From: Cyanophora paradoxa CCMP329
Lineage: Eukaryota > Plantae > Glaucophyta
Assembly (NCBI GenBank): GCA_004431415.1
Contig: QPMI01000543.1
Span: 1 to 51,304, forward strand
Reading direction: 5' to 3'
DNA length: 51,304 nt
The notes beneath the pieces were generated by a model. The model saw nothing but the letters and a program-made list of their open reading frames with translations, was not told where the DNA came from and ran no database searches. Numbering within the stretch: position 1 is the stretch's first letter; each line of letters starts with the position of its first letter. The position numbers and the translations under genes are program-made. Positions 18,780 to 46,914 of this stretch are shown here, one piece after another.

Positions 18780-19977
18780 AGATACCTATATATCTATTAC
18801 TATATATATTGCCAAGAACCAGAGACGATGAGCCCTGCCCCGGCAATTTGTTTTTATTTATGTGTCCGGCCGGCCAGGCCCTCAATGGCCCAGCCCGCCA
18901 GCTGACAGTGACCCCGGCGATATGATGGCGATATCGATGTCGATCCTTAGGGCCTGTGCCGGTGTGATCGCGGTCTTTTAATCGAGAGCACGCCGCGCCA
19001 AGCTTAAGCCTGAATCGGTACTCGGGACGGGAATTTCGATAAGGTTCTTCGCCATACATGTCCAACCGAAATTCTAGCGGAGCACAGCGAACGATTGGCG
19101 CGAAACTGAGCACGTCTGAAGTGCAGTTTAGAGCAATCTAGAGCAGGGAGATTTTGGGTTTCGCGCCAATGTCTCGCCGTGCAGAAGTTGGCCTCGGGGG
19201 TCGCTGCGCCCCGGCCCCCTCTTCAGCCCTCGACAGCGCAAGGCAGCTCAAGGCCCGCCCAGGCCCCCCCGCTCCCCCCAACTGCCCTTCCCGGGACTCG
19301 AACGCTGGGGCAATAAGACGCCGGCCGGGCGCGCTGCTAGCTCGGCTAGCTCGCCGCGAAACTGGCCTTTTCCTCGTCGCTTTTGTATGGCCATACATCT
19401 AGGAAAATTTCGTACCGCATCCGCACGAAACTGAGCCTTATTCTAGCATCAAGATGCATACTAGCTAGTATTAAACGCTTCAGTTTCTCGCCAATCGCTT
19501 TCCATTATTTTATCCAGCCAAATCGACCAGACAATCCTAGAGTTGACACTCGCCGTAGATATAATGCTTTCGAACTGGTATTCGCTGGATTCCGGGTTTT
19601 ATAATCATGTGCGCACGTACTACGGTATACGTAGCTACTGACTCTGAGGTCCTTTTCATTTTGAATCGATCTAATTATAAAGCAGTCACGTTGACGTAAG
19701 CGTCGACATATGCAGTTGAATCCGAATTCTATTAGTATTAATTTCATGCGACTCGCCACGGCGTCCGACGGTCGGTGATTTGGTTTTTGGTGAATTCAAT
19801 GCATATGATTACCGGCCACAGTCTCTAGACACCAGCACTGCGGGGGCTGCCCAGGGGGCACAGTGAAGTTTTAGATGCGCATAAGTGTCCGAATTCGAAT
19901 ATATAAATACAACACTGTAACACGGGCGTACGCGTGTGAGTCTATTAATTACAAACAATGCCCGTGTATGCGACCAG

Positions 19978-21642
19978 CTAGCTGAAGGGGGCATACGGAA
20001 GGAGAAAAATGCTGTATCCAGAAGCGCTCGGTACAATGACGGCGCGCTCGTCCGCCGTGAAGCGCACGCCGCGGTGCACGGCGATCGAACCCTCAGCGCG
20101 AAAGGGAACACGAAAGGGCCCCGCCCGCAGCCCTCGAAAAGGCCAGACGACCTCTACCGATGCCATACTACGGCCGTGGGTCGACAGGGGGCGTTTGTAG
20201 AAAGCAAGAACAGAGCGGCTTGGGGTTGTGCACATCACGATAGAGACGGGAATCCCGAGGACTTCGAACAGGTCGTCCCTGACAAGCGTCTCGCTTACGC
20301 TTTGCGTGAGCTCCCATGCATTCGTCTTCGGATTGAAGGGGCGCCACGAAGAGGGACCTGTTGGAAGGCCCACGATGTAAAACGAATTTTGAGAGACATC
20401 GAGATAACCCTCGCGCCCCGGGGCAGACCACGTGGAAGGCAAGTCCGCGAAGATCGGTGTGAGCGTGGCGACGCGATGCCGCACTGGCTCCCACACGAAC
20501 GAGCTGGTTTGACACACGGCGAGCACGCGGCTCTCCCCCGCAGGGGCCAAAAAGCGAATCGAGATGACATCGCGAAGGGTTGACCGGGGATCCCGAACCT
20601 CGGATGTGCCCGCGCACAGCGTGTAGCGAGCTGCCCACCACCAGTAGACGTGCTTGCGACTGGCGGAATGCACGATCCACGGGCTCTCATCTTTTGGACC
20701 CTGAATGCGGGGCCAGGGCCCGGGAAAGAAAAGTTGCCCGCGACCGCGCGTCACGTTTTCGCGGTCGGGCTCGTAAATTGCAACCGAGTTCGTGTACTGT
20801 AACCAAAGGCGCCCTGAGGGGTCGCGCGCCATATCGACCAGCCAGGCGTGCGAGTTACGAAAAACGGGGGTCCATCGACCGGACTCCAAGTCCACGACGT
20901 GAATTGTTTCGCTCCCTCCGACGGCCAGGCCGACGTGGTTTTCATCGATGGCAACAATTCGCCGCACTCGCTTTTGAGGTATTATCGTGAGTGCGCTCGA
21001 CGTCAGGTCCTTTGTCTCGCTAGGAGGTCCGCCCCCGGACGGAATTACCCTGTATCGACCCTCTCGATACAAGGCGACGCGCCCATCCGGCAGCCCAAAC
21101 ACGATGCCAGGAGCTCCAAATGCAGGAGCCCAGCTCGGAGCCCCTTTAATGGAGGGAGCCGCGTCGCGCTCATGATCGCCGACGCCTTGCAGAAGAGAAA
21201 CGATGCGGTACTCATCGGTCTCGTAGCTGTGCACAACGGCCCACTCGCCGGAGGCCGCGAGGATAAGCGAGCCGCTCTCTCCTGGGGACAAGATGGGCAA
21301 GGCGAGAATGGCGGGTCGAGGCGGTCGGAAAAGCAGCCCGAGATCGGCAGGCATAGGGGCGGCCCGCCCCGCCTTGTGAAACACGGGATAGAGGCATCGC
21401 GTCATCTCTCCCGCGTCGACCGAACCGAATCGCGTCCGGGCGGATAGCCTCTTGGAGCAGATGGAAGCGAGCACGGCTGGGTCGGCCCGCAATAGTACGG
21501 CGATTGCAGAATCGGGTGCGAAAGGAAGGTCAGCGTCCACGTCTTCCGCAAAACCAGACACAGTTTTGCACGAGAGAGTGGATTGCGCATATGCGTGCCA
21601 TACGCAAGCCCATGAGGAGCTGCAGGAGGCCGGATAAGGCAT
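19978..21642 (-). CDS. Beta-propeller-like protein with possible divergent N-terminal F-box
   Basis: Long clean ORF; strand-turn repeats (IVFGLPDGRVALY, TIHVVDLESGRW, DMARDPSGRLWL); N-terminal DLPFAPDSAIAVLLRADPAVLASICSKRL loosely F-box-like. Start uncertain. Confidence 0.55.
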   Translation of the reverse strand: MPYPASCSSSWACVWHAYAQSTLSCKTVSGFAEDVDADLPFAPDSAIAVLLRADPAVLASICSKRLSARTRFGSVDAGEMTRCLYPVFHKAGRAAPMPADLGLLFRPPRPAILALPILSPGESGSLILAASGEWAVVHSYETDEYRIVSLLQGVGDHERDAAPSIKGAPSWAPAFGAPGIVFGLPDGRVALYREGRYRVIPSGGGPPSETKDLTSSALTIIPQKRVRRIVAIDENHVGLAVGGSETIHVVDLESGRWTPVFRNSHAWLVDMARDPSGRLWLQYTNSVAIYEPDRENVTRGRGQLFFPGPWPRIQGPKDESPWIVHSASRKHVYWWWAARYTLCAGTSEVRDPRSTLRDVISIRFLAPAGESRVLAVCQTSSFVWEPVRHRVATLTPIFADLPSTWSAPGREGYLDVSQNSFYIVGLPTGPSSWRPFNPKTNAWELTQSVSETLVRDDLFEVLGIPVSIVMCTTPSRSVLAFYKRPLSTHGRSMASVEVVWPFRGLRAGPFRVPFRAEGSIAVHRGVRFTADERAVIVPSASGYSIFLLPYAPFS

Positions 21643-21969
21643 ATTAGAGCTTGGAAGTGAGTGGGCATTGCAATTGCAATGGATATCCTGCGCATGCAAA
21701 CGCGAGTCGCGATCGGATTCAAGCACCGTGTCCGTATACGTATTTGCACCCCTCATGATCAGAACGCGTCTCGAACTCCGGATCGGGGTCTTTGAGCTTG
21801 TGCTTGCAATTGCACGTGGGTCCCTTTTGGGATGTGCCATATATGCATCCCACCCATGGCAAGGCCCCCGATTTGAAACGCGGGATCGACCGGAGCTCGC
21901 GATCGGAACGAATTCGGTGGACGTCGACGTAAATGGGAAACAGCGCACTACGGTACCCTCAGGTTCAGT

Positions 21970-23578
21970 TGCAGGCGGTCTTCTGCTTGGCTTATACAAT
22001 TAATCATGAATAAATCTAAGGAGGGAAAGGGGGAGAGGTGGGGGTGGGGGGCGCTTCAAAATTTCGGGGACACCAGAAATCTAGATCTAGAGCGGCCGTG
22101 GTCTTATATAATTAAGGAGGACTGGACGTCAATGGGAAACGGCGTATCCCCAGGTGCCGAGCTGAGCTTGGCCAGATGGAGAGACGAGGTGGGGGGTCCT
22201 TGAGCGAAGCCTGGACGTAAATGGGAAACGCAGTACCCCCCAAGGGGGCGAGCTGAGCTTGGCCAGAGGAAGAGACGGAGGAGGGGGCCGGGGGCCTTGA
22301 GCGAAGCCTGGACGTAAATGGGAAACGCAGTACCCCCCAGGGGGGCGAGCTGAGCTTGGCCAGAGGAAGAGACGGAGGAAGGGGGACCTTGAGCGAAGCC
22401 TGGACGTAAATGGGAAACGCAGTACCCCCCAGGGGGGGGGGGGCGAGCTGAGCTTGGCCGGAGGGAGAGAGGAGAGAGAGGGGAGGGGGCCTTGAGCGAA
22501 GCCTGGACGTAAATGGGAAACGCAGTACCCCGAGGGGCAAGCTGAGCTTGGCCGGAGGAGAGACGGAGACAGGGGAGGGCGGCCTTGAGCGAAGCTACTT
22601 TCTACTTTCTAGCTGAGCTTGGCCGGAGGGAGAGAGGAGAGAGAGGGAAGGGGGCCTTGAGCGAAGCCTGGACGTAAATGGGAAACGCAGTACCCCCTTC
22701 CCCTCCCATCCACCCTCCATGAGCCAATCCGAGCACATGATCATGATCATCAACGATTATTGCAATAATAATCAATCAAGCAGTAGGAATATTATGAGAT
22801 CGCAGCGTCAGTTTATATCTGCGGTCGATTCTAGATCGGATCCCGTCCCCGCGCGAGCCTTCTCTCTCTAGATTCAGATGTAGATCTCAATCTAAATGGC
22901 ATCGATGCCATGATAATCATATATATGCAGCTGCAGGCGGCAAGGAGAGCTGGGGGTACAGCGTTTCCCATTATCGTCCAGGGCTCCCCTATGGCCGGGG
23001 TGTCCCGCAGAGAGGAGAGCGGGGGTACAGCGTTTCCCATTATCGTCCAGGGCTCCCTATGGCCGGGTGTCCCGCAGAGAGGAGGGCCCCGGGGTACAGC
23101 GTTTCCCATTATCGTCCAGGGCTCCCCTATGGCCGGGGTGTCCCGCAGAGAGGAGAGCGGGGGGGACAGCATTTCCCATTTACGTCCAGGGCTCCCCTAT
23201 GGCCGGGGTGTCCCGCAGAGAGGAGAGCGGGGGGTACAGCGTTTCCCATTATCGTCCAGGGCTCCCCTATGGCCGGGGTGTCCCGCAGAGAGGAGAGCGG
23301 GGGGGTACAGCGTTTCCCATTATCGTCCAGGGCTCCCCTTTGGCCGGGGCCCCCCGCAGAAAGGAGAGCTGGGGGGTACAGCGTTTCCCATTTACGTCCA
23401 GGGCTCCCCTATGACCGGTGTGCCCCGCAGAGAGGAGATCTGCGGGGGACAGCGTTTCCCATTATCGTCCAGGGCCCTCGTACACATGCACATTGCCGGC
23501 CCCGGGGTCCCCGCAGATCTAGAGAGGAGATCTTTGGGGTCAGGGGTTACAGCGTTTCCCATTTACGTCCAGGGCTCC
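21970..23578. repeat. Bipartite repeat module 1 (6 forward cores, type-A centre, 9 reverse cores)
   Basis: CTGGACGTAAATGGGAAACGCAGTACCC at ~22122 (degenerate), 22211, 22308, 22400, 22503, 22668; reverse core GGGTACAGCGTTTCCCATTATCGTCCAG at ~70-bp period from 22953 to 23575. Confidence 0.95.
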
Positions 23579-23972
23579 TCTTTCGAAGCGTGCGCGTGAT
23601 CATGAGACTCTGAGATCGCGGCCATCTTTGGGACTCGGAGCTGTAGACCTCGCCAATCGCGAGTCGCGTTGTGCGCGGGCCGCGGCCGGCCGCGCGCGGG
23701 TCCAAAGTCAACTGTGCTGCATTCAATCATAATTTGCATTTACGTATATATACATTTGCGGCCGTGCGGGCCTTGCCAGCACTCTAGATCTAGATCTAGA
23801 TATAGATTTATCATCGTATGGCGTATGCGGGCCGGGGGCGCGGCGAGCCGGAGCGCGTGCAGCCAGCAGGGCTTGCGGCGCGCGTCGGCGAGCTCCGGCC
23901 GTGGGCCCGGGGCCCGGGGCCCGGGGCTGGCCATGGGCGCGAGGCATGTGCGAGGCGTGAGAGCGGGTGCAG

Positions 23973-24957
23973 CTGCAGGCGGTCTTCTGCTTGGCTTGAT
24001 CATGAATAAATCTAGAGGTGGGGGGCGGGGGGAGGGGGAGGGGGGGGGGGGGGGGGGGGGGGGGGGCAGAGGTAGGGGGGGGGCGCTTTCAAATTTTCGG
24101 GAGCACCAGAAATCTAGATCTAGAGCGGCCTTGAGGGAGGCCTGGACGTAAATGGGAAATAGCGTACCCTCAGATGCAGCTGAAGGCGGGAAGAAGTTTC
24201 GATCTGCTTGGCTTGAATAAATCCTAGAGGGGGGGAGAGGGCAGAGGTAGGGGCGGGGGGGCGCTTTCAAATTTTCGGGAGCTCCAGAAATCAAGATCTA
24301 GAGCGGCCGCGGCCTTGAGGGAGGCCTGGACGTAAATGGGAAACGCTGTAACCCCTGGCACACGAACTGAGTCTAGCCAGGGAGAAGCGGGGGGGGGGAA
24401 GGGGGGGAGAGGGGGGCTTTCTTACAATCACCCATATGCACGGCAGCCCGGCGGCCCCCCCTCTCCCCCCCCCCTCGCCCTCACCCTCCATGAGCCAATC
24501 CGAGCACACTGACATGATCATGATCATCAACGATTATCGCAATAGTAATGATCAAGCACTAGGAATATTAAAATGAGATCTAAGCGTCGACGTCGGTCTA
24601 GATCTAGATCTAGATCTAAATCTGCGGCTGTCAAGACGACACTAGCTATATAGATCAGATCCCGTCCCCCGCACGCGCCTTCTAGATCTCACTCTAGATT
24701 TAGATGTCGCTCTCAATCTAAATGGCATCGATGCCATGATCATCATATGCAGCTGCAGGCTGCAAGGAGAGCTGGCCGTGGGATACAGCGTTTCCCATTT
24801 ACGTCCAGGGCTCCCCTATGGCCGGGGTGTCCCGCAGAGAGGAGAGCGGGGTATAGCGTTTCCCATTATCGTCCAGGGCTCCCCTATGGCCGGGGTCCCT
24901 CGCAGAGAGGATGGCTGTGGGGGTACAGCGTTTTCCATTTACGTCCAAGGCTCCCCT
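23973..24957. repeat. Bipartite repeat module 2 (2 forward cores, type-A centre, 3 reverse cores)
   Basis: Same leader as module 1 (GCAGGCGGTCTTCTGCTTGGCTT...TTCAAATTTTCGGG...); cores at ~24142, 24326 and ~24781, 24849, 24919; centre 24483-24775 homologous to 22712-22950. Confidence 0.93.
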
Positions 24958-26995
24958 TTCCCCTCGCTCTCTTCAGCCAACTGCAGGCCGACCGCATACC
25001 TCCCTCTCGCTCTCTCGACAGCTGGATGGGGGGTCGAGGAGGAGGCCCGAAAAGTCGAAAGATCTAGATCTAGCTAGGCGCCGTTCAACTCTCGCAGGCG
25101 ACAATCCCAACACGATCATGTGGTGCGATTACGATCGAGCTGGCAGGGCGCCCACATCGATCGAGCTAGCCTACTAGGCGCCTCCCAGCCACCGGCCCGG
25201 GGGCGGGACAGAAAGAATCCGAGGGGGGCAGATCTAGAGGCGCGCGCACTGCACGGCCGCGAGAGAGAGGAGCTCCGCCACCTCCCCGCCCGCCCGGGGT
25301 GCAGAGCTGGACCGCCGTGCGTGTCCCGGTCCGCTGGTGTGCGTCTCCTTTGCCTGCTCCTGCAGCTGAGCGAGGGAGCGACGAGGGGTCCCGAGACCGG
25401 GGCGCCCGGGCCCGGGCGCGATGGGGCAGGGCATCGAGAGCTCGAGCGAGCGGTCTCGATCGCGAGAGGGCGCACCGGTACGGCCCTGCCGAAGAGGCCG
25501 CCGTCGGCCCGGACGACGACCGAGGGCTCCGAGCGGGACCGGCCGCGGCGCGCGCGCCTCCGGTCCCGAAACCGTCCCGAGCCGGTCCAGCTCGGGGCGA
25601 CGTCGAGCAGGCTGGCATTGGCCACATGCATGGCTGGCGAGACGCGCGCAGTGCGCCTAGCTGTAGCCGTAGGCCAATGGCAAGCTCAAGGCTAGGCCAT
25701 GCGCGCGCCCGACGCGCCGCGGCCGCTCGGGCTCCTCGTGCTCGCGATCGAGCCCCCGCCACTCGATTCTTCTCCGTCTGCAGCTGCAGCTGGATCTGCG
25801 CGCCGCGGCGCGCGTTACGTGGCGGCGGGGCCGACGGGGCGCATCGGCGCATGCGCACTAGCACTGCGGCAGCTGCGCATGCAGGCCCGGGGCAGGAGAC
25901 GCCCACGTGCGCGTGGGACGAGCTCTGAGATCGACAGCGCGCCCATGGCGATCTCGATTCCACGCGTTCAAGGCCGCACGGCCAGCGCATCGCCGATCTA
26001 GATCTAGATCAAGACGGCTCGAACTCGATGCTGCATGACGGCTTCACTCGCTGCGATGCCGATGCCGATGCCGATGCAATCGAGCCGATGCATGTGCCGC
26101 TCTTCCCCCGCAAGCTCGCTCGACCGCACTGGGGGCGGCCGCCCCGCGCTGTTCTCGCCGGCACGGGGCAAAGGATCCAGACTTGGAGCGTGCAGTCCGC
26201 CAGTGATCGGGCCCTAGATCTCCTTTCCGCACGACTTAAGCGCGGGGCGCGCGGGGCCACGGGGCGGCCTCGAGCGCGAGGTGCGACTGTACCCCACTGG
26301 CCCGCCCCGCTCTCTTGGATCGGCGGCTCCGACCCACCTCTGCGGTGCGGTACGCTCCTCTCGGATTTGGGCCCCCGTTCCGACCGGATTCGCAGACCCT
26401 GCGCCTTTCCGCAACATTCGATCCGCGAGCTACGAGCACGCGCGATCCACCGTGGCACGCGCGCCATTTGAGAGCCGCGCTGCGAGCGCGGACGATGGCC
26501 TGCCGTCCACCGCAGCCGCCCCCGTGCGCCCCTGCCATCCGATCTGCGACCCGCGGCCATCTCGCACCTTTCTCCCTCGATGGCGTCGCCCGATCGGCCC
26601 TCCACGGTGCACGCCGGCTCTTAGAATGGGTCTGGCCGCCTCTGGAAGACGCAGCGACGCCGGGGCTCGCAGGTCGCCGAGCTGGAGACGGGAATCTCTT
26701 CTTCTTGCATCCTCGGTTCGTACGGCGCTAAGCCTCGCCGACCGCGCTCCCCGGGTCGCGCTCGCGTGCTCACCGACCCCTCAGCGGTGGCGGGGCGGCG
26801 TGGGACGCTTCGTTCTCTTCGGGGCGGGCTGGGCGGGGGCGGCACCCGCGGATCGGGCGGACGAGGCCGAGCGGGGGCCGATCCGTCGGCTCCGGCAGCT
26901 GCGGCGCGACCGCCGGCTCCATCCCTTTCTCTTCCCTCTTTCCGGCGCGCCCCCGTGTCCGGCGCGCCGTCCGGCCCGGTTCCTTTTGGCCGCGG

Positions 26996-29900
26996 TCACG
27001 GCCCGCGGTTCTTCCGCGGCCTCCCGCGCGCCCGCGGGGCCCCCGAGCCGCCCCGTACGGCGGCCCCCGCACGCGGCGTCGGAGGAGCGGGGGGCGAGGA
27101 CGGCCCGCCCCCCAGGCCCAGCAGGTCGGAGATGCGGGCCGGGGGCGTGCGGATGTCGACGGCGCCATTGCGGGCATCGTACCTCACCGGCGCGAGGGTG
27201 CGCACGCCCGTCCACTCGCGCGCGCTGCCCTCTGAGCTCGGCGTCCAGAGCGCCCCGAACCGGCGGAGGACGGCCCAGCGCGACTCGTACTCGCCGCTCG
27301 GGAGGCGCACCATCTGCACCAGCCGGGCGAACACGGTCCGGGGCAGCGGGTCCGCCGCGTGCGTCGCCACCGCCGCCGCCACCTGCCCCGGGGGTACGGG
27401 CTCGCGCTGACCCACCTCAGGTGCCACACGGGCCGCGACGGCGGGTCCGCGGGCTGCGCGGCGGGGAGAGCGGGGCGCTCCGGGCCCGGAGACGCCGCGG
27501 GGGAGGCGGCCCGACGCCCCTTGGTCTCCGCCCCGCGTCCCGTCCCCGACGCCCCGCCCCCGCGGCGGGCCCTCGTGCGGCTCCCGCTGCCGTTGGGGCA
27601 GGTCTGCGCGTGCCTTCGGGCCCCCGCCGCCGTCTGAAAGGTCTGGCGTCGGTGAGACGGTGCGCGTGCGCGCGCGCGCGCTCGCTCCCCCTCGCTCGCT
27701 CGCGGAAGGGTGGGGCGGGGCGGGCTCACCCGTCGGCAGGGCTCGCAGTACCGGCCCTCTCCGATTGCGAGGTCGAGCTCCATCTGGTCTCCCGGGTCGA
27801 GGCGCCGCCGCTGCCACGGGAACCGCTTCGGCTTTCGCGGCCGCTCCTCTTCCTCCTCTTCCTCTTCCTCCTCTTCCTCTTCCTCTTCCTCCTCTTGCTC
27901 CTCCTCCTCCTCCTCCTCTTCCTCTTCCTCCTCTTCTTTGCCGCCCTCTGTCTCGCTCCGGCTCCCGCTCCGGCTCCCGCTCCCGCTCCCGCTTCCGCTC
28001 CGGCTCTCCGGCTCCCCTCCCTTTCCGGGCGGGGTACCGCCTCCCCGCGGGGGACGGGCGGCGGTGCGCGGCGGGACCGACGTCGGCGTCGCGCCCGTCG
28101 ACGTCTCGGGAGCGCGGGGCGAGCTCGGAGGCGGCAGAGGGGCGACCGCAAAGGGTACGGCGGTGCGGACGGGTACGGCGGTGGGGACGGGTACGGCGGC
28201 GGGCGCCTCGCCGGGGCCCGGCCCGCCCGGGTCCGGATCGGCGGGGAGGAGGGCCGGCGGCGAGTCGCGGTCGGCGGCCCCCGTGGACCGCTCCCGCTCG
28301 GCGGCGCGGCGGCGCTCGTGCTCCTCGGCCAGGCGCTGGAGGTACGCGACGGCGGCCGTCGCCGTGCGCTGCCGCGCGCTGGCGTCGTAGTGCGTCGTCG
28401 CCGTCTGCGGCGTGTGCGCCAGGAGGCGCGCCACGCCCTCGGTCACCGCCGCCGCCGCGTCCCCCTCGATCAGGTTCACCGCCGCCTGGTCCCGCACGTG
28501 CGTCGTGATGACCGCCCGCATCGTCTTGGCCGTCACAGGCACCCCGGTGTAGCGCACCATCACCTGCGCGCGCGCGCGCGCGGGCGCGCGGGGCGCCGGC
28601 GTCAGCGTCGGCGTCGGGATTCGAGCCCACGCAGTAGGTTCGCTCCCCCTCTTCCCCCCCTCCCCCCTCCCCCCTCCTCCCCCCCCTCCTTCTCCCCCCC
28701 CCCCCCCCCCCCCCCCCCCCTCTTCTCCCCGAGCGCACCTTTCTGACAAAGGCCGCCCAGCCGCTCTCGGAGAGGCAGGTGCCGAGGCTCGAGGCAAAGA
28801 GCCAGCCCTGGTCGGGCCCGCCCGGCGGCAGGAGGAGGGCGCGGAACCGCTCGATGTAGACGTCGAGCGGCCCCTGGAGGCAGTCGGCGATCGGCACGAT
28901 CATCGCGCCGTGGGACCTGCGCGGCCCGGCCTCGGCGCGGGCGGGAGGGGGAGGGGCAGGGGGGTACGAGGGCGCGGGGGCGCGCACTTGGCCGTCTTCG
29001 AGACGAGCTCGCCGGTCTCCCCGTGGCGCATCTCGAGGAGGCTCAGGTGCCACCGCCCGCCGTCGCGGCGCAGCGTGTGACCGATGCGCAGGCGCCGCAC
29101 GACGCCGACGCGGGCCGGCGTCACCGAGATGAACCCGATGAGCACGGCCTCGCGCAGCAGCCGGGCCTTGTCCAGCTCGAGCGGCGCCCGCTCGTACGCC
29201 GCGAGCGCCTCGACCCGCGCGGACAGCACCGCGTCGAACGAGACCCAGTTCGGTCCGCGCGGCCGCCACCCCCGCTGCTGCTTCTTCTCCTTTTCGAGCT
29301 GCGTCTTCAGGTTCCGGAGGGGGCGCGCGTGGGGACCCTCGGAGGACCCTCCGCCCGGCCCGCCCGACGTACCCCCTCCGCCGCCGCCGCCGCCGCCGCC
29401 AGAGGTGCGGGAGCAGACAAAGGTGTAGGCCTGCATGATGCTCTGCGTGTACCCCGCGAGCGTGCCGGGCGCGAGACGGCGCTCCTCGCGCAGGTACTGC
29501 AGGAAGCGGACGTAGATCTCGACAAAGTCGGCCCGCGCCAGCAGGTCCATGGTGAGGGGCCCGACGCGCTCGCGCTCCTTGACGTACCCCAGCAGGCGGC
29601 CGATCGTCCCCACGTCGTTGACGAGCACCGTGCTGCGCTCCGCCGCGCCCCCCTGGCGGTCGGGGTTGAGGGCCGAGGTGCGCCACGCCTGAAACGCCGC
29701 CAGCTGGTTCTTCAGCTCCCGTGACATCTCCGCCTCGCGCAGGGCGTACGGCGCCAGGCGCTCCGGCTCCGGCTCGCCCCCCCCGTCGGCCGCCTCTTCC
29801 TCCTCCTCCTCCCCCTCCCCCTCCTCCTTGCCCTCTCCTCCCTCGGGGGCTTCGAGGGGCCCTGCGTCCTCGCCCTCTTCGGCCTCGGCGGACGATCCCG

Positions 29901-31747
29901 AGGAGCGGGAAGAGGACGAGGAGAGCGAGGGCGGGGGCGGGGGCGAGGGCAAGGGCCCCGGCGGCGCGGCGGCGGGGGCGGAGGAGGAGGAGGAGGGGGA
30001 GGGGCCGGGGCCGGCGGAGGGGCCCCCTACCCCCCGCCGACGGGCGGCTCGGGGGGGTACCGAGGGGGGCGGCGGGGGGAGGACGACGCGCTCGGCGTCG
30101 GGCAGCGAGTCCTCGTCAAAGAGGACGACCTCCTTGTCCACCATCCCGCTCTCCAGGAGCGTCCGGTACGCCTCGCGCTTCTCCGCGATGAAGCGCCCGT
30201 TCTCCTCCGAGATCGCCGCCGACACCGCCTCGCCCCTTCGCACGTAGGCCAGGCTCCCCGCGGAGATCTCGTCGCCCCAGGGGAACCCCGTCATCACCTC
30301 CGTCGTGAGCGCCTCGGCGAACCAGAGCGTCCACGGCCCGCACTGGTACCCGTCCCCGACCTGCAGGCGCCCGCGCGTCTCCGTGACGAAGCGGTAGCGG
30401 GGAAAGGCGGCCTTGCAGGCGCGCTCGAGCCTGGGGTCGGGCGGGCCGCCGAGCGAGTCCCAGAAGCGCGTCTGCTTCGACGCCCCGTCCACCGCGAGGA
30501 GGGTCCAGTGGCCCCCGCTCGATCCCCCTGGGTGCGCTCCCCGCCGCGCCTCAGGTTGCCACGCTGACGGGGCAGAGGACGCAGGTCCCGCGCTCGGCGG
30601 CGCCCAGGGCCCTGCGCGCCCGCCGCGCCTCGTCGGCGCGCGCGTACCGGAGCAGCAGCGACGTCACGATCTCGACGTGCATGGGGTAGAGGGCCTTGAT
30701 CCGTCCCCCGGCGCCGGCGCGGAGCAGCAGCAGCGTGAGGACGTTGGCGATCTCGGCGTCGCGGAGCCAGCTCTTGCGGCCGAAGATCGAGATGCGGCGG
30801 GCCAGCGGGAGGGGCCGGGAGGGCCCCGCAGCGGCCACGGCGGCCGGGTCCGCCCCCTCGAGCACGAGGCGGGCCCTCTGGAACTCGGCGGCCAGCCCCT
30901 CTCTCCGGTCCGGCAGCGCCCCGAGGAAGCGCTCCGCCCCCAGGGCGCTGACAAAGGCCCACCTGCGCGCAGATCCGTGCGTCGCGACGTCGGCCCCGAG
31001 GCCGCCGTAGTGGACGAGGGTGCGGGTGAGGAGGGCGAGCCGCTCGCGCCCCACCGTCCGCGTGCTCGCCTCGAAGCGGTGCGGCCCGCCCACCGCGAGG
31101 TCCGGGTGCCGCCTCATGATCTCCATCCGGACGCAGTTCGTGGAGCGCGAGTCCCCGTAGGCCGCCTGGGCGAGGCTCGCCAGCGGGATCCACCACTCGA
31201 GCTCCGGCACCTGCGTACCCCCCCCGGCCCCCACCGTTGCCGGCGGCGATGGGGAGGGGGGTACAGGGGTACGCACCTCGATCCGCCGCGCGCGCACGGC
31301 CAGGAACCGATCCCCCGCGGCGCGCAGGACCTGCATCTCGAGGCGCTCGAGACGGGCCTGCCTCCGGCGCTCCAGCGCGGCGTAGAGCTCGGCCGCCGCG
31401 CGGTGCATGCGCCCGTCCTGCGAGCGCTCCCACGTGTTGCTCACGATCGGCTCGACGTAGCGCAGGGGCAGGACCCGCGGCGGCCGCTCCTGCGCGTCGT
31501 GCACGTTGCGCGCGATGGCGCCCAGCGTCTCCAGGAGGAGGATGGCGTTTTCGTCGGGCAGCGGGCGCGTCGGGACCCGGTGCGCCTCGGTGAGCGCCTC
31601 GTCGCCGCTCGCGATGCCCAGCAGACGCCTGAGCTCGGCCGTGCAGACGCAGGGGCCGGCGTCCGTCCGCAGGACCACGAGGCGGGCCGGCCCGTACGGG
31701 CCCTCGAACTCGGCCAGCTCGTACGTGTCCGTGACCGCGGAGAACAT
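26996..31747 (-). CDS. Spliced multidomain protein: Ulp1/SENP-type (C48) cysteine protease + tyrosine recombinase + acidic tract + C2HC zinc finger + AT-hook
   Basis: Protease motifs WLRDAEI, GGHWTLLAVD, FWDSL, QVGDGYQCG. Recombinase motifs TPARVG (R), SKTAKSHG (K), AKTMR (K-x-x-R), LLAHT (H), TTHYD (Y). Inferred GT-AG introns 31211-31276, 28917-28987, 28564-28738 and 27643-27729; splicing restores KTAKSHG and CEPCRRTFQTAAGARRHAQTC. C-terminal RGRPRK. Unresolved frame changes near 30560 and 27400. Confidence 0.82.
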
Positions 31748-32589
31748 TCTCTGCTCCCCGCGGCCGCCCCTCTCCGAGGTCGGGCGCGCGGGGGGCTTTT
31801 AGTCGCGGCGCCCCGGCCCCTCTCGGGCCTTTGTCGGCCCCTTAGTTGCAGTACCCTGAGGCCTTTGCCGGTCCGCTTCATTGCAGTACCCCTGCCTTCC
31901 TCGCGACCTCGCATTCATTGCTGTACCCCTGCCCGCCTCGCTTCCCCCACCTCCTTTCCCGCCCCTCGGAGCCGCTTCCGAGGCCTCGCTCCGCGCGCCT
32001 TGTGCGGCGCGAGCGCCGGCGCCGAGCGCGCTATCAGCGTAGAACGGTGTGCGGAGCACGCACGGCACCTTTCCGCGCCGTTTGCGCGCGTCTGGAGCGC
32101 CCCTGGGGGGAGGGGGGCCCCCCCGGGGTCGCGATCGAAGGCCGAAAGAGGGGCCGCATATACCGCACTAAAATTAGCATCAATTAGAGGGGGTCCCCTG
32201 CATGCCTTCGACGGCCTTTGTGCGGATCCGAAAATTCATTTGACCCCTTTTTCGGGGGGGGTGGGACTGGTATGGCACCTTTTGATTATCGTTTTGTTAA
32301 ATGAGCGGGATCGATCCGATCCGCACTAAGCCACTTTTTAAGAGTAAAGCGGGTCCCTGCATGCCGAATTCGAGCTCGGTGCCCAGCGGATCGGAAATCG
32401 GGTCTCGCCGGCGGCCCCCGGGGACCCCCTCGGAAACCGTTCCTAGGGCGGGCGCCGGCCCAAACGCACCGCCAGGAGTCGAGAGCGCGGCTATCAACAG
32501 GGATGAACGCGCAGAGGCTGCCGGCACCCTTCTTCGTGCGGGCCGGGGTACGCGTGCGGTTCTGCGGGAGGCTCTCATCTTCGAATCAT

Positions 32590-32782: not shown

Positions 32783-34039
32783 ATGGCCCGCATCAAGCAG
32801 ACGGTGAGCGAGAGCGCCCGCCCCGCGCTCTTCTCCTCGTCCTCGTCGTCCGCCTTGCAGCCGATCATATGCATCGTGTCTCATGTCCGCCGTCTCTCGC
32901 AGGCAAAGAAGAGCACCGGCGGCAAGGCGCCGCGCAAGAAGCTGGCTACCAAGGCGGCCCGCCGCTCGGCTCCGGCGGCAGGCGGGGTGCGTGATGTCGC
33001 AGCGCGCGTCGCGTCCCAGCCGGAGCGCCGGCGCCGCATCCCGCGGCCGGCGCGTCTAACGTGTGCGCATGCGCACCGCAGGTGAAGAAGCCGCACCGCT
33101 ACCGCCCTGGTCGTCTCCCTCCCCGCCCCGCGGCCGCGCTCTAGCTCAATGCAAGCTACGCCACATGCATGCATGCACGCATACACGCAGCTATAGCTAG
33201 CTATAGATGCACCCCGCCCGCGCGCGCCGCTCCGGCCTCTCTCTCTCTCTCGCTCGCTCTCACCGATTCCTGACGCGCGTACCGCGCCGGTCGTCGGGCG
33301 GCGGCGGCGACGGAAAGGCACGGTGGCGCTCCGCGAGGTGCGCATGCATGCCGAGCCTACCGTAGCTGAGCCGACTCTGCGCCTGCGCGCCGCCTGATCC
33401 CGCGTCGCATCGCAGATCCGCAAGTACCAAAAGGTGGGCGCTGCCGCCGCGCTGCCGCCGGCCCGCCGCCGCGGGGCCCGGGCCCCGTGGCCCCGGGATC
33501 GTTCGACTGAGACCGCGGACGCAGACGACGAACCCGCTGATCCCCTACGCGCCCTTTAAGCGCCTCGTCCGCCTTCCCGCCCCCTTTTCCCGCCGCACCC
33601 CCGCACTCCCTGCCACGTCGTTTTCGCGCCCGCGCGGCGCAGGTCCAGGAGATCGGGAGCGAGATTGCCAAGGAGAAGAACGAGGAGGGGGCAGACCCCA
33701 AGATCGAGCTCCGCTGGACGCGCGAGGCCATCGAGTGCCTGCGCGAGGCCAGCGAGATGGTCCGCCGCGTTTGCGCCCCGGCCCCGCCCCCTCGACCCCA
33801 AGGGCGCGCTTCCCACGCTCGCTTTGCCCGCCTCTGCGCAGCAACTCATCAAGCACTTTGAGGAGGCGAACCTCTTGGCGATCCACCGCAGGCGCATCAC
33901 CATCCAGCCCAAGGTGCGGCCCCCGCCACCGCCAAGCCCCTGCGCCCGACCCCTGCCCCGCGCGCTCCGTTCTGTCCAGGACATTCAGCTCGCCCGCCGC
34001 ATCCGCGGCGAGCCTGCGACGGAGCCCACGGCCTCCTGA
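32783..34039 (+). CDS. Histone H3 variant, 153 aa, 9 exons; canonical-type tail on a CenH3-like histone fold
   Basis: Exons 32783-32803, 32903-32986, 33082-33109, 33318-33337, 33416-33433, 33525-33566, 33643-33759, 33842-33913, 33980-34039, all introns GT-AG. Product: [153 protein letters not shown]. Confidence 0.95.
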
Positions 34040-34393
34040 TCGCGACGGCGGCGGTCCAACAGCGGTCCGCGCAGAGGCCCGTCTCGGTCCGTCGCCCCTG
34101 CCCTCCTCTCCTTCGCCCCCCTTTCCCCGTACCCCCCCACCCCCCCACGCCGAGCCTCACCGGCGCGCGCGGCCGTGGCCAGCTCCGGGCTTGGCCGAGA
34201 GCCGGCGAGCCTGGCGTCGCCCTCCCTCCCCCTTCTCTCCCCCCCTCCCCCCCCCCCCCCCCCTTCCCCCCTCCTGTTTCTCTCCCGACTCGCCGCTCTC
34301 TCCCTCGTGCGAGAGCACCGCTGCTTCTGTACAGCAATGACCACACCGCACGCATACCCCCCGGGCCCTGTCTAAGAGGCGCGCGTCTAAGAG

Positions 34394-35675
34394 GGCGGCT
34401 TTGAGCGAAGCCTGGACGTAAATGGGAAACGCAGTACCCCCAGGGGGCGAGCTGAGCGTGGCCGGAGGGAGAGAGGAGAGAGGGGGGAGGGGCGGCCTTG
34501 AACAAAGCCTGGACGTAAATGGGAAACGCAGTACCCCAGGGGCGAGCTGAGCTTGGCCGGAGGGAGAGAGGGGGGAGGGGCGGCCTTGAGCAAAGCCTGG
34601 ACGTAAATGGGAAACGCAGTACCCCCAGGGGGGCAAGCTGAGCTTGGCCGGAGGGAGAGAGGAGAGAGAGAGGGGGCAGCTTTGAGCGAAGCCTGGACGT
34701 AAATGGGAAACGCAGTACCCCCAGGGGGGCGAGCTGAGCGTGGCCGGAGGGAGAGAGGAGAGAGGGGGGAGGGGCGGCCTTGAACAAAGCCTGGACGTAA
34801 ATGGGAAACGCAGTACCCCCAGGGGAGCAAGCTGAGCTTGGCCGGAGGGAGAGAGGGGGGAGGGGCGGCCTTGAGCAAAGCCTGGACGTAAATGGGAAAC
34901 GCTGTACCCCCAGGGGGGCGAGCTGAGCGTGGCCGGAGGGAGGGGGGGGGGGGGGGGGGGGGCGGGGGGCGGCCTTGAGCAAAGCCTGGACGTAAATGGG
35001 AAACGCAGTACCCCCAGGGGGGCGAGCTGAGCGTGGCCGGAGGGAGAGACGGGAGAGGGGGGAGAGCAGAGAAATGCAGGGCCCCAGGCGAGCTCCCCCC
35101 TCTCCCTCTCCTCCTCCCATCAGCCAAACGGAGCACACGATCGGCGATAGTCATCATGATCAATATTACCTGCACAAGCGAACGGTCCCGATACTCATCT
35201 TATCTAGAACTTCCAGCTTCTGAGCCTCACGATCAGCACCTAGATTTCAATTAGCCCTAGGCCTTCTTTCTCCTATGGTCCGTCTCTCGCTTTTTAATTT
35301 CAAGCTCATGATCGATTTCGATATATATTGCCGCTGTCCAAAGTCGAATCTTTTGTTGTGAAATCAAACTTCTGGCAACTCTCCTCCGCAGAGAGGAGGG
35401 TCCCGGGTACGAAGTTTCCCATTATCGTCCAGGCCTCCCCTATGGCGGGCCGGGAACGCTCCGGATCTGCAGAGAGGAGGGCCCCGGGGTACAGCGTTTC
35501 CCATTATCGTCCAGGCCTCCCTATGGCGGGGCTGCCCCGCAGAGAGGAGATCTGCGGGGGTACATCGTTTCCCATTATCGTCCAGGGCTCCCCTATGGCG
35601 GGGGCGCTCCGCAGAGAGGAGGGGCGTGGGATACAGCGTTTCCCATTATCGTCCAGGGCTCCCCTATGGCCGGGG
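34394..35675. repeat. Bipartite repeat module 3 (7 forward cores, type-B centre, 4 reverse cores)
   Basis: Forward cores at ~34412, 34509, 34597, 34693, 34791, 34882, 34986; centre ~35065-35400; reverse cores at ~35405, 35486, 35557, 35628. Confidence 0.95.
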
Positions 35676-36362
35676 CGCCCTGCAGATATAGAGAGCTCGA
35701 GGCCTCGGGTTCGATCCGCGACCGGGCTCGATCTCTTCTAGATCTGGATCCGCGGGGCCCGGGGATTCCGGTCGCTTGCGCTTCTTCGGGGGCCGGGCCC
35801 GCGCGGCGCCCGCCGATTGCGAGCTCGAGCTCGCGCCGCGGCGCCCCCAGCGGGCGTCCAGCGCGCGCAGGACCGCGCCCGGGTCGGACGCGTACTGGGT
35901 GGAGAGCTGGCGTGCCGCCCGCTGGACGATGCGGCTGCCGAGCGGGCCCTGGTACGCGTCGAGGAACATGAGCAGGTCGAGGAGCTCAAAGTACGCCCCG
36001 AGGTCGGGCGGCTCGCGCTCGGGGGGCCACGTTCCAAACGCGGCGGCGTTGGCGAGGCGCACGGTGGCCGCCGAGGCGGGGAGGTCGACGGGGACCGTCC
36101 CGGATCCGGACCCGGCCGCCGCGACGGCGTCGCTGCACTCGAGCACCGACCCGAGCAGCCGCGAGTACCCCACGAGGGCGGCGCAGAGGGGCACGCTCTC
36201 GCCGTCGGGGGTGCAGCGCGCCACGAGGGCGGGACCAAGATCGAGATCCAGGGGCGGGGCCGGCGCGCGCGCAGCGGGCGGCAGATGTAGAGTCTGCGGG
36301 GGTAGCGCCCGGGGCGAGAGCGCGAGGTGGGGTGCGCATGCGGTGTGCGTGGAGGTGCTCAT
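35664..36362 (-). CDS. Skp1/BTB(POZ)-like protein with basic NLS
   Basis: CTPDGESVPL...YSRLLGSVLE...VPVDLPASAATVRL...YFELLDLLMFLD parallels the Skp1/ElonginC pattern (SSDG..F....S..I..M....IPL....LFEL..AA.YL); PPKKRKR near the C-terminus. Confidence 0.6.
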   Translation of the reverse strand: MSTSTHTACAPHLALSPRALPPQTLHLPPAARAPAPPLDLDLGPALVARCTPDGESVPLCAALVGYSRLLGSVLECSDAVAAAGSGSGTVPVDLPASAATVRLANAAAFGTWPPEREPPDLGAYFELLDLLMFLDAYQGPLGSRIVQRAARQLSTQYASDPGAVLRALDARWGRRGASSSSQSAGAARARPPKKRKRPESPGPADPDLEEIEPGRGSNPRPRALYICRAPRP

Positions 36363-37207
36363 GATGCCGTGCACGTGTGTGTGTGTGTATGTAGCCGGCG
36401 GCGGGGAGGGGGCGGGGGCGGAAGCTTAAGAGGTCTCGCTCCCCGGCCCGCCCTGTGTACGTATACAAATGAAATGAGTATTCGATCCATTGAGCGCGTG
36501 CGGCGAGATGGAGACTCGGACTCGCGATCGTGGGCATGTGCATGCTGCATGCCGCCGCCGGCCGCCGAAAATTCAGACTAGAACCGAATCTCGAACACGG
36601 GTCGCATACTACGATATGTAGTTATTGGCCCGCGCGTCACCCGCCTCCCGACCCGGACGCGGATCCGGCCTCGGAGGCCTCGTCGCCGCGTTCTCCGCCC
36701 CCTCCTCCCCTTGTCGTCGTCTTCGTCTCGCCCCGAGGCGAGCGCCAGCACGGTTTCGTCAAACGTGTAGCCCTCGGCGCTCCGCACGGCGTCCAAGATG
36801 CGCGCCGAGACGCGCTTGGCGCCCTCGGCGTCGGCGGTTCGAAGAAGCGGGACGGTCGAGACAAAGTCGATGGCGCTGATTCCCGTTCCCGTGACGCGAG
36901 CCAGGCCCGGGAAGCGGCGGATGGTTTCGGCGAGGTTCCTCAGATCCGTGTAGATTTCCGTCCTCTGCGCGGAAGCTCGAGCCGGAAGCCGACCGCCTCT
37001 GCGCCGGCGTGTAAATTTGCGAGTCAGCGTAAACGGGGATGCGTAGATGTGCGCGGATCTATATATATAGATTTAAATGCAGGCGAGAAACCCGGAAATC
37101 GTAAAGTGCGCGGCGTGCGCTCAGCGACTTGACGATCTCGACCGAAACGAAAGCGAATCGAAACCAAAATTCAAAACGTGCACGTGCGCGAGCGATCACC
37201 CTCACGA

Positions 37208-39381
37208 TCACGTACCGAGGATGGAATTGTACTTGCTTTCGACGTGCGTCTTCCTCCAGTACCCCCAAAGCTTTCGGTTGTTTCCGTGCTGGTCCCTGTA
37301 CTTTTCGTAGGCGCCGAGCACGGCGGCGGCGACGAGCATGATGGCCCGGATCCGATCGCGCCCCAGCTGCTGGACGCGCTCCAGCAGCTCCGCCCGCGCC
37401 TCGGCGTTTCCGTCGAGGCGCCTTCCGACGAGGGCAATGTCCACGCCGGCCGACAGGCCCATCTCGTACGCGGGCAGGCTCTCGGGGTCCACCTTGGAGT
37501 CCTCCCCCGCGGCGGCCCCCTCGAGGCCCCCCTCGAGCTCGTCCTCGTCTCCCTGCGGGCCTTCGGCGGCCGTCGCGAGGGCCGCTTCCCACGCGGCCGC
37601 GAGCTCGGCCTCGCGGGGATCGACGTCGTGATCGGGGCTGCCGGCGCGCGAGTCGGAGCCCGAGCCCGGATTGGAATTCGAAGCGGACGGGGAATCGGAC
37701 GCGTCGGCGTCCGAACGGGCCCCTTTGTCGGCCCCCCGAGCCCCCCGCTTTCCGCCGCCGCTCGAGCTCGCGACCGGCCCCGCCAGCTGCAGCGCCGCCG
37801 CCGCCGGGGCCGCCGCCGCGCCTTTGGGATCCGTCGACGCCTCGGCCCCTTGGTCGGCTGCACCTGCCGCTGAAGCCGCAGGCGGCCCGGCCTCCTCCTC
37901 GGAGCCCGAGGCCTCCGGATTCTCTGCGGGGTGGGTGTACGCGCAGTAGAGGATTTTGACGAGCTTGTCGCTCTCGTAGGGTTTGCGCTCCGTCCTCCCC
38001 GCCCCCCACTTGCTGCGCGCGCGTTTCGCGGGGGTACCGGCACCCGCGGCCCCGGCCCCACGGCCCCCGGCCCCGTGGCCGATCGCGATCGCGATCGCGA
38101 GCTCGAGCTAGCAGCGCTGGGGCCGGAATTGGAGCTGGAGGCCACGGCCGCCGCCGCGTCCGAATCCGGCTTCTTTCGTTTTCGCAGCCTCTCCGTCGCT
38201 GCAGCTGCGGCGGCGGCGCGACCATCGTCCGGATCCGCCGCCGGATCTTTCCCTGCAGCGCTCGCAGCGCTCCCGCTCGAGTCTGCGGGGAGGGCGGGCG
38301 CTGCGGCTGCGGCCGGGTCCGCGGTGGAATTCGGATTGGCGGGAGATCGCGTCACCGGCGCCTTGCCCTTCCAGGCGCTCGAGCCGGGGCCGGCGCGATC
38401 GGGATCGGAGCTTGCGGCGGCCTTGAGCTTGCAATCGCCTGCATGCGCAGAGCTCGCGCTGGCCACGGAGGTGGAGGCCGTCGCGTCTGCCTCTTTCGGA
38501 GGAACCTCTGGATCCGCGCCCTTGGGCTCGCCGGACGCCTCCGAGGCCGGCGCGTGCGTGGGCGGATCGCGATCGGCGCCGGCGGATCCGGAACTCAGAG
38601 TCTGCTGCGCGTGCGCATGCTGCAGCTCGAGCTCGAGCTGCGCGACGCGCTCGCAGACGGAGACGAGCGCCTGCCTGGCGACGATTTCGGACGAGATCCA
38701 GCTCTGCGCGCTGCCGGCCCCTTCCTCGATAAAGGACATGTACGCCAGGTAGGCGTCGATGCGGGAGGACGTCAGCAGATCCTCCGGGGCCCTGTGCCCC
38801 TCCTTGCACGCGGGGCACGTGAACGAGCGGCGGGCATGCGCGGGCGCGTCCTCCGTCGTCGTCGTCGTCGGCTTTGGATTCAAATTGGACGTCGACCCCG
38901 CATCCGCGTTTGCGGCGGGTGGCCATGGGTCGCGATGGCGATCGGGTACGGCGCCGGAGACGAGGGTGAGGGCGCACGTGAGGCACACGAACGAGGAGGA
39001 CGCGCCCCCGCGCAGGTCCTCCAGCGTCGGGCTGGGGTGCGTCTCGAGCGCCTCGCCGAGGGACGAGGCCCCCGAGCGGGCCAGGACGCGGGCCGCGGCG
39101 CAGGGGAGGAGGTACGCCGGCGGCGTCACGCTCTCCAGGCCGCACCGCGCGCACGAGGGGCGAAACGCACGGCTCGGATCCCGTCCAATGCTTATAAACG
39201 TCGGAAGCTGCACCTTGGCCGGTCGGCCGTCAAACGACGGCCGCGCGAGCGCGAGAGCGTGGGCGGACGGTGGGCTCGAGGGCCCAGCGCCAGCGGCCGC
39301 GACGCCGGCGCCCCGCTTCGAGTTCGGGCTCGCGGTGGATCCGGATCCGGAGGCGCCGGCGGGGCCCTTTCCAGTCGACAT
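37208..39381 (-). CDS. RING-like zinc-finger/coiled-coil protein with one apparent frameshift (~38000)
   Basis: CARC...YLLPC...VCLTC...FTCPAC with insertions, then a coiled coil and KRKK; after ~38000 the protein-like frame is the one containing KLVKILYCAYTHP...DPESLPAYEMG...KLWGYWRK. Confidence 0.55.
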
Positions 39382-41675: not shown

Positions 41676-41862
41676 GCTCGAGGGGTGCGGCGCTGGAGGG
41701 CGGTGTCGTGGCGGGCGACGGCATCTGCATAAATACATATGGCTAGCTGTAGAAGCGCGCCTGCCCTCCTCCCGAGCCTCGCGATTCGCGATCACACGCA
41801 TGCGCGAGCTCAGCCTCGCGCGCGATCGCCATCGATATCGCCAGCCGCCTCGCTCACGCGCA

Positions 41863-46856: not shown

Positions 46857-46914
<58 letters not shown>

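Follow-up and report, generated by a model that had tools for sequence, protein, structure and literature searches.

The protease–recombinase gene and its reading frame

The window analyzed here, the whole 51,304-nt stretch of contig QPMI01000543.1 from the glaucophyte alga Cyanophora paradoxa CCMP329, carries on its minus strand a gene predicted to encode a protein of ~1,450 amino acids (aa; 1,436 counted plus 15 codons at frame breaks) in which a protease precedes a tyrosine recombinase. From the N-terminus the order is a Dachshund/KilA-N-like domain, a second N-terminal domain, a CE-clan protease, the recombinase, a poly-glutamate tract, a C2HC zinc finger, a C-terminal domain and an AT-hook-like end. 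Nine paralogous gene models (P0001–P0008 and P0149) lie on nine different contigs and serve as reference for the features below.

31747–26996, minus: protease–recombinase gene, five predicted exons
31747–31277, 31210–28988, 28916–28739, 28563–27730, 27642–26996, minus: predicted exons
26996–26998, minus: stop codon
31276–31211, minus: predicted sense intron 1 (66 nt, GT-AG, in frame)
28987–28917, minus: predicted sense intron 2 (71 nt, GT-AG, splits the KTAK motif)
28738–28564, minus: predicted sense intron 3 (175 nt, GT-AG)
27729–27643, minus: predicted sense intron 4 (87 nt, GT-AG, inside the zinc finger)
30523–30558: two assembly errors of one base each in homopolymers, a C missing at either end (DNA run X1)
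27389: single-base slip of the assembly, one G short (DNA run X1, depth 248/436)
31420–31747, minus: N-terminal domain 1, modeled as a Dachshund/SKI/KilA-N/Bro-N-type fold
30870–31330, minus: N-terminal domain 2, conserved in Cyanophora-type paralogues
30150–30800, minus: putative CE-clan (Ulp1/C48-like) protease; Trp 30769, His 30510 (GGHW), Asp 30459, Gln 30363, Cys 30342
28347–29757, minus: tyrosine recombinase, core-binding and catalytic domain; Arg 29112, Lys 28998, Lys-x-x-Arg 28527/28518, His 28416, Tyr 28389
27845–27938, minus: poly-glutamate tract, length not conserved among paralogues
27600–27747, minus: C2HC zinc finger, C-x2-C-x12-H-x3-C after predicted splicing
27100–27440, minus: C-terminal domain of ~115 aa, conserved in P0149, P0004, and P0007
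27011–27028, minus: AT-hook-like RGRPRK, also in P0149 and P0004

A first-pass annotation of this DNA had proposed a protease–recombinase fusion and singled out continuity across 30560 as the point to check. The frame is continuous from the first domain to the AT-hook, because DNA run X1 supplies the missing bases and paralogues read through; the breaks at 30560 and 27389 are single-base slips of the assembly. Specifically, X1 has an extra C behind 30558 and another behind 30523 (the latter also in RNA contigs from three runs), which rules out an intron or programmed frameshift at 30560, and the segment is uninterrupted in three of the nine paralogues (P0149, P0002, and P0005), the other gene models being without that stretch; no second gene begins here. 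Repair of the slip at 27389 joins the C-terminal domain and AT-hook to the frame, and P0149 and P0004 read through this place as well. RNA runs give cover without the extra G (depth 13.4 and 9.4), probably from short partial matches, since the main RNA contigs skip the position. These corrections draw on one DNA run (X1) plus the paralogues; 20 of 24 runs contain the stretch, 14 of these at 0.92–0.93 of its words, and four were aligned to the locus.

Even before correction, one unbroken frame of 524 codons (30558–28987) holds the protease His, Asp, Gln, and Cys together with the first half of the recombinase, and the coding frame has a GC content of 0.93–0.95 at third codon positions (GC3) vs. 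0.56–0.58 at second positions (GC2). That the two enzymes are separate genes or a decayed copy, and their fusion an artifact of reading, is hardly credible: although the window sequence has stops at two frame breaks and the only RNA seen over the gene is antisense, X1 repairs both breaks, the 524-codon frame already spans protease and recombinase, P0149 and P0004 each unite all domains in a single gene model, and P0083, a more distant relative described below, is a single open reading frame (ORF).

Spliceosomal introns, also proposed in the first pass, number four rather than three, each predicted from GT-AG ends and the paralogue alignment. Intron 1 corresponds to a 22-residue insertion missing in all aligned paralogues.

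Domain assignments and the recombinase family

The catalytic residues that the first-pass annotation had read from the sequence, a protease His-Asp-Gln-Cys set upstream of a recombinase R, K, KxxR, H, and Y, are all present on the minus strand. For structure we relied on a model of paralogue P0002, 84% identical to the window protein in the recombinase, from a 76-sequence alignment (a single-sequence fold, at a predicted local distance difference test score [pLDDT] of 40, was useless). The model has pLDDT mostly >85 over residues 560–770 and high confidence over the recombinase and residues 20–110; structure comparisons covered the recombinase and N-terminal domain 1. As modeled, the recombinase has an Xer/Cre-type fold, matching XerH (Z 11.0, root-mean-square deviation [rmsd] 4.7, 261 aligned) and Cre (Z 9.8–10.3; at Z 10.3, rmsd 4.7 and 244 aligned), as well as XerA and an integron integrase. 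A recombinase profile matched XerC-like 4a8e (E 3.7e-4), and Pfam gave Phage_int_SAM_1 on part of the 524-codon frame (E 0.029). Across 86 sequences the catalytic residues are kept (Arg 86/86, Lys 86/86, second Arg 82/86, His 79/86, Tyr 75/86), most misses being gaps in truncated rows. The protein thus shares with Xer, Cre, and lambda-Int the core-binding and catalytic fold and the R-K-(H)xxR-H-Y order, but differs from them in its low identity (13–17%), in a Lys for the first His of H-x-x-R (66/86 sequences), and in its large eukaryotic accessory domains.

Ahead of the recombinase, the CE-clan His-Asp-Gln-Cys set is present in order and aligns to ChlaDub2, and the sequence assigns the protease to this clan. 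A profile of the protease-bearing proteins, searched against PDB, matched ChlaDub2 best (3.7e-7), then XopD, NopD, SENP1/2, and ChlaDUB1. While the Trp motif and the His-Asp-Gln-Cys order and spacing are those of CE-clan proteases generally (ChlaDub2, XopD, NopD, SENP1/2, SENP8), the closer likeness to SENP8/NEDP1 suggested earlier found no specific support, the best solved matches being bacterial CE-clan enzymes and SENP8 not being among the 22 at E ≤0.5; the substrate of a CE-clan enzyme cannot be told from its sequence.

Two BRO-N-like segments had been suggested at the N-terminus, of which the first finds support. Residues 4–108 of the P0002 model resemble Dachshund (1l8r; Z 10.2, rmsd 2.7, 95 aligned), also SKI and more weakly Mbp1, with Bro proteins among the viral models, and this Bro-N/KilA-N/Dachshund-type domain is likely to bind DNA. 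The second segment is not supported as BRO-N-like, and profiles of N-terminal domain 1, N-terminal domain 2, and the N-domain of the environmental relatives did not match one another. Behind the recombinase, the poly-glutamate tract, zinc finger, and RGRPRK end noted in the first pass are all present: the finger spacing is identical in P0149, its Cys/His positions recur in P0004 and partly in P0007, and RGRPRK is what we take to be an AT-hook. The C-terminal domain had no Pfam match, and its best Atlas score was 0.89, to unnamed clusters.

The protease region accompanies the recombinase in seven of the nine paralogues, and the protease–recombinase order recurs in another organism. Seven of the paralogues are labeled Cyanophora paradoxa; they are 45–84% identical in the recombinase part (eight with a value), catalytic residues remain intact in copies that have diverged 16–55%, and P0149 is full-length (1,346 aa). 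P0001 is an EF-hand gene model ending in an 80-residue piece of the family recombinase, i.e., a decayed copy fused by gene prediction. The other organism is represented by P0083, a 1,138-aa JGI/IMG metagenome protein (recombinase 26% identical) with an N-domain, a CE protease with its His-Asp-Gln-Cys set (E 4e-13), the recombinase, and a C-terminal chromo domain, in that order. In a FastTree phylogeny without an outgroup root (86 of 206 sequences kept, including the window protein, rows below 80% core coverage being excluded), the Cyanophora-type clade has P0083 and P0056 as its sister group (support 0.89, on long branches), so that the CE protease–recombinase fusion may have arisen once.

Beyond the paralogues, a search with the recombinase half returned 133 proteins at E ≤0.001, a few of them spurious (PLAT, lectin, and TPR proteins), and a metagenome scan gave 96 confirmed matches, 80 of them kept as loci; environmental data hold >100 relatives. 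An N-terminal domain of their own is common to these relatives (91 sequences), whose C-terminal part is a chromo, Tudor, or PHD-like domain or a Cys/His tail with an OTU-like motif (17 sequences); the tail has an invariant G-D-C and His, and OTU is our presumed label for it, Pfam and PDB giving no support. No DUF3504, DUF3435, GCR1_C, or Phage_integrase match appeared in 76 aligned relatives among 25 of 28 families listed at E 0.2, nor DUF3504 in 58 relatives at E 0.01. Prokaryote genomes gave only two weak matches (33–34% over 87 residues, E 2e-4), one of 15 PHROGs matches was to phrog_1 integrase (0.0098), and pattern scans of IMG/VR gave no confirmed relative. The databases were clustered at 50 and 90% identity, which would hide recent copies. 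The family has no Pfam model, and its recombinase lineage is not described in the literature searched, outside which lie Repbase and most subscription papers.

Antisense RNA, repeat units, and neighboring genes

The RNA over the locus is antisense to the protease–recombinase gene, because its introns have GT-AG on the plus strand.

26395–31942, plus: spliced antisense RNA over the whole gene (contigs of X15, X16, X19)
26607–26784, 27198–27420, 27660–27739, 30166–30247, 30346–30397, 30532–30584, plus: antisense introns
30908–30972, 31079–31136, 31269–31327, 31403–31460, 31590–31646, plus: antisense introns, continued

Runs X15, X16, and X19 were treated as RNA since their contigs skip GT-AG introns kept by the DNA run. 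Among the 15 of 32 joints listed, nine lie inside the gene; X15 and X16 show all nine and X19 six of them (the runs come from three studies), and DNA run X1 shows none. Eight of the nine are GT-AG on the plus strand, as is the ninth once the extra C is counted; two further antisense introns were deduced from contig pieces. The remaining joints listed are two introns of the neighboring histone gene and four with 20–23 letters on one side that look spurious.

The antisense RNA is apparently non-coding. A protein from 29990–31942 is ruled out by stops in all three frames (longest open stretch 195 codons), and a 591-codon open frame at 26200–28470 is of low complexity and, by our estimate, within chance at 77% GC. 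Antisense donor-like sites number 24, compared with 12 when synonymous codons are shuffled as one pool (z 5; z ≤2.0 for 35 control ORFs) and ~17 when shuffling is exon by exon. The donors used sit on TAC, CAC, GAC, or ACC codons, forced by the high GC3, and we lean toward cryptic rather than selected splice sites.

The gene sits in a GC-rich block (~25.2–34.3 kb, 66–79% GC) outside which GC is lower and intronless TFIIB-like and GIY-YIG genes occur.

32783–34040, plus: divergent histone H3 variant gene, eight predicted introns, head to head with the recombinase gene
41866–42696, minus: TFIIB-like gene, intronless (Pfam 1.3e-10)
18186–18779, minus: GIY-YIG nuclease (Pfam 1.3e-9)
45590–46081, plus: second GIY-YIG-like ORF, by eye, no Pfam match
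21926–23590, 24050–24960, 34390–35697, 46344–47535, 50593–51304: five repeat units
31848–31928, plus: three GCWGTACCC copies in one short tandem repeat, 100–180 nt upstream of the start codon

Each repeat unit consists of forward tandem copies (~97 nt), a conserved AT-rich spacer, and reverse copies (71–82 nt), and the units at 24.1–25.0 and 34.4–35.7 kb bound the GC-rich block on its left and right. 110-nt and 121-nt tandem arrays are flanked by the last two units, which are inverted, and a ~65-nt direct repeat (46155 and 47538) lies on either side of the fourth. At the core of the arrays is the 9-mer GCWGTACCC, found 36 times in the window vs. 0.56 expected (32 in arrays, three upstream of the gene, one elsewhere). 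An Rfam search gave nothing, and a 17-mer match of the repeat in L083 (from IMG/VR) was dismissed as chance, the flanks differing. The units could represent element ends or junctions, or belong to an unrelated foldback family: the one left of the gene is a candidate element end or independent foldback element, and a link of it or of the unit on the right to the recombinase gene is an inference.

These arrays bear on the possibility that the gene is a resident resolvase or invertase shuffling or amplifying modules between repeat units, or a domesticated chromatin protein, and no longer a mobile unit. The five units (22.1, 24.1, 34.4, 46.3, and 50.7 kb) delimit blocks that differ in composition, the 9-mer at their core is found again upstream of the gene, and the paralogues are 16–55% diverged with catalytic residues intact. 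We nevertheless consider this unlikely, as the three upstream 9-mers amount to one event, old transposon subfamilies also look like diverged multi-copy families, and recent copies would be hidden by the clustering of the databases.

In the H3 variant the tail is H3-like, loop 1 is long, and core residues are altered, which we take to be CENH3-like traits (Pfam Histone 4.9e-4 on one exon); its last two introns were seen spliced in three runs, and it is possibly cargo. Flanking the block, 1–22000 and 35700–46100 hold many intronless, mostly minus-strand ORFs without Pfam matches, among them a beta-rich ORF of 673 aa (19981–21999), a Cys-rich RING-like one (37174–39480), and an ankyrin-like stretch (10247–11467); both look like parts of a decayed virus-derived island. 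The upstream part of the TFIIB-like gene is tandemly duplicated (0.9 kb, 42734–44743), and its sole homologue found was the host's own model (EukProt tig00021071_g17957.t1, 100% identical over the matched part). The published assembly is PacBio-based and 99.94 Mb long, with 29.4% repeats and 11.5% unknown repeats; the parts of that paper available to us make no mention of recombinases or viruses (PMC6704402).

Most relatives' loci are short (few >8 kb), and their neighbor genes are mostly not common to several loci. A C5 DNA methylase adjoins the recombinase in L026 (2542–3633, plus), an H4-like gene lies head to head with it in L080 (562–1263, minus), and two recombinase genes occur on opposite strands in five loci (L007, L014, L015, L019, L032). 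Behind a short-type recombinase come two small conserved ORFs, one shared by 13 loci and the other by nine. L041 has a short P-loop ORF (159–494, minus; Pfam only 0.089), which we take to resemble A32 packaging ATPases. In L039 (2878–18400) lie a recombinase with an OTU-like tail, a protelomerase, an SF2 helicase, and a DnaJ-ended ORF, as well as a separate ORF that has no Pfam match and in which a CE-protease-like His/Gln/Cys pattern can be seen by eye. L007 has long inverted arms (below), and between them lie one recombinase gene, a Tc5/DDE transposase, and the beginning of another recombinase; the left part of L007 contains a 1,038-aa ORF with a P-loop-like motif, presumably a helicase by our reading, with no Pfam match.

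Proposed mobilization, known systems, and meaning

On balance we favor, without great confidence, a likely role for this gene as the mobilizing enzyme of a Crypton-like DNA transposon family whose recombinase lineage is not described in the papers searched. We count in its favor the single frame, the two catalytic sets, the recombinase fold, the nine paralogues, the relatives with exchangeable accessory domains, the host-type introns, and the lack of a reverse transcriptase or capsid gene among the ORFs scanned. The relatives' accessory domains are the same set as in Ginger, Mutator, and Helitron transposases (PMC2836005), and the dispersal of the paralogues is one Crypton trait present.

Several observations weigh against this interpretation. 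The window and the clustered databases yielded no element ends, empty site, or near-identical gene copy, and no clear outer boundary is common to the repeat units. The 15 of 32 RNA joints listed included no sense splicing, in contigs that cannot show its absence, and RNA contigs retain sense intron 1. Profiles and structure support the Xer/Cre-like fold of the recombinase, and a profile match supports the CE clan for the protease; Pfam Peptidase_C48 (PF02902) falls just below its cut-off (E 7e-4, 19.9 bits vs. 20.7, on the part 3′ of the slip; 14–16 bits in whole paralogues), and the protease region has pLDDT <40 in both models, with a shallow alignment. Outside the GC-rich block the window looks like a virus-derived island, and some relatives keep unusual company: a protelomerase (5.7e-15) and SF2 helicase beside the recombinase in L039, ERCC4 near it in L069, Clp protease and RING in L031, and, in L007, identical inverted arms of at least 4,485 nt (2976–7460 and 16078–20562) with 181-nt tandem repeats, a structure that may be genuine or produced by assembly.

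Such company raises the possibility, which we regard as doubtful though by no means negligible, that the gene is the integrase of a large endogenous virus or cargo element (phaeovirus-like or Starship-like), with the window part of an island and the repeat units attachment or origin sequences. The intronless TFIIB-like (1.3e-10) and GIY-YIG (1.3e-9) genes and the lower GC around the gene would fit, as would the protelomerase, helicase, ERCC4, Clp protease, C5 methylase, and H4-like gene near relatives and the head-to-head histone gene in both the window and L080. Phaeoviral elements of Ectocarpus integrate by a tyrosine recombinase (PMC13236599) that, like the window protein, is large, has a XerH-like fold, and resides in an algal genome, and virus-like neighbors include a protelomerase in some relatives. 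However, the phaeoviral FirrV-1-B4 is only a distant fold match (E 0.025, 13%), introns are present in the window gene, and the gene and its histone neighbor are GC-rich and intron-bearing, unlike the surrounding ORFs. Moreover, no capsid, polymerase, or packaging ATPase matched in 24 + 11 window ORFs and pieces (Pfam), in a scan that could miss intron-split genes and with models weak for Polinton-like virus and virophage capsids; IMG/VR holds no confirmed relative, and the relatives' neighbors are mostly not shared, most loci being too short to judge.

The first-pass annotation had noted a resemblance to recombinases of Polinton-like viruses and virophages, a link that found no specific support, and an origin from such viruses we consider very improbable. 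Such viruses often use tyrosine recombinases (PMC4642659, PMC12220804), a Polinton-like virus is mentioned in Cyanophora paradoxa (PMC12220804), and L007 combines long inverted arms with its P-loop-like ORF (no Pfam match). Against this stand the lack of a confirmed relative in viral contigs and of detected capsid genes, the four host-type predicted introns, and viral fold matches that are distant and unspecific (8–18% identical, no better than phage integrases).

Returning to the Crypton-like reading, Kojima and Jurka (2011; PMC3212892) report C48 alongside the recombinase in oomycete Cryptons: CryptonF-2_PS has it, and some CryptonS encode it on an additional protein; their text is silent on fusion in CryptonF-2_PS, so a fused form is possible there. 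With these the window gene shares the combination of a eukaryotic DNA element, a tyrosine recombinase, a C48/Ulp1 peptidase, and no reverse transcriptase. CryptonF has a GCR1_C domain, whereas no GCR1_C match appeared in the window C-terminal pieces, in P0149 or P0004, or in the 25 of 28 families listed for 76 relatives; CryptonS has TATGG-type termini; CryptonA and CryptonI have a DUF3504-type recombinase and no C-terminal domain, whereas the window protein has no DUF3504 and a long C-terminal extension. Across all groups, Cryptons have 4–6 bp terminal direct repeats, no long terminal inverted repeats, and dispersed copies, of which the window family has the dispersed paralogues. Unlike these oomycete Cryptons, the window protein has a Dachshund/KilA-N-like N-terminus, a C2HC finger, and an AT-hook. 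Its recombinase matches no Pfam model linked to Starships or to Cryptons (as we presume these models to be assigned). Starships are characterized by a DUF3435 captain recombinase, and no DUF3435 match was found in the window protein, P0149/P0004, or the relatives searched. In DIRS/Ngaro retrotransposons the recombinase is accompanied by reverse transcriptase and RNase H, neither of which matched in the 24 + 11 window ORFs and pieces or in the selected ORFs of the relatives' loci, a scan that could miss intron-split genes.

Ginger1, Mutator, and Helitron transposases carry Ulp1, OTU, or PHD domains (PMC2836005), and so likewise fuse an Ulp1- or OTU-type protease and chromatin readers, exchangeable between families, to a mobilizing enzyme. 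Theirs are DDE or rolling-circle enzymes with a C-terminal protease, whereas the window protein pairs a tyrosine recombinase with an N-terminal one. The protease–recombinase pairing is therefore a known theme and not new in kind, since C48 in Cryptons and Ulp1/OTU fusions in Ginger, Mutator, and Helitron are known, and the earlier suggestion of a new element family stands insofar as the family is multi-copy and has no Pfam model. What is new relative to the literature searched (Repbase aside) is the recombinase lineage, the N-terminal protease position, the Dachshund-like domain, and the CE/OTU-like exchange.

If this reading is correct, the element would leave its site as a circle cut out by the recombinase and enter a new one through tyrosine-mediated strand exchange, a cycle already proposed for Cryptons (PMC3212892), and binding to element ends or to target DNA would fall to the Dachshund/KilA-N-like domain, the zinc finger, and the AT-hook. 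The protease might strip SUMO, NEDD8, or ubiquitin, its substrate being either the recombinase or silencing and repair proteins at the site, and tag removal could protect the covalent protein–DNA intermediate from removal or loosen silencing; a protease role against silencing or tags is an idea raised for Ginger elements (PMC2836005). The antisense RNA may keep the window copy quiet, in a genome whose repeats are methylated (PMC12344493). More speculatively, and with considerable reservation, we can imagine an undescribed, widespread superfamily of algal tyrosine-recombinase elements that home to or travel with virus-like islands, having independently recruited two unrelated erasers of ubiquitin-like tags (a CE protease in front and an OTU-like domain behind), chromatin readers, and histone cargo, the Cyanophora-type copy being bounded by the 24.1–25.0 and 34.4–35.7 kb repeat units and held down by its own antisense RNA.

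To our knowledge, eukaryotic DNA elements with tyrosine recombinases are few, i.e., Cryptons, Starships, and some viruses, and the window gene family adds a further such lineage, with >100 environmental relatives and no Pfam model. The spliced antisense RNA carries a warning, namely that RNA-based gene models at this locus would annotate the wrong strand. Transposases of several classes have repeatedly acquired Ulp1 or OTU domains, and we know of nobody who has shown why. A tyrosine recombinase forms a covalent protein–DNA intermediate, and cells remove such intermediates via SUMO and ubiquitin signals; because the putative eraser of these tags is here fused in cis to the recombinase, in a culturable alga with many paralogues, the reason for protease capture becomes directly testable.

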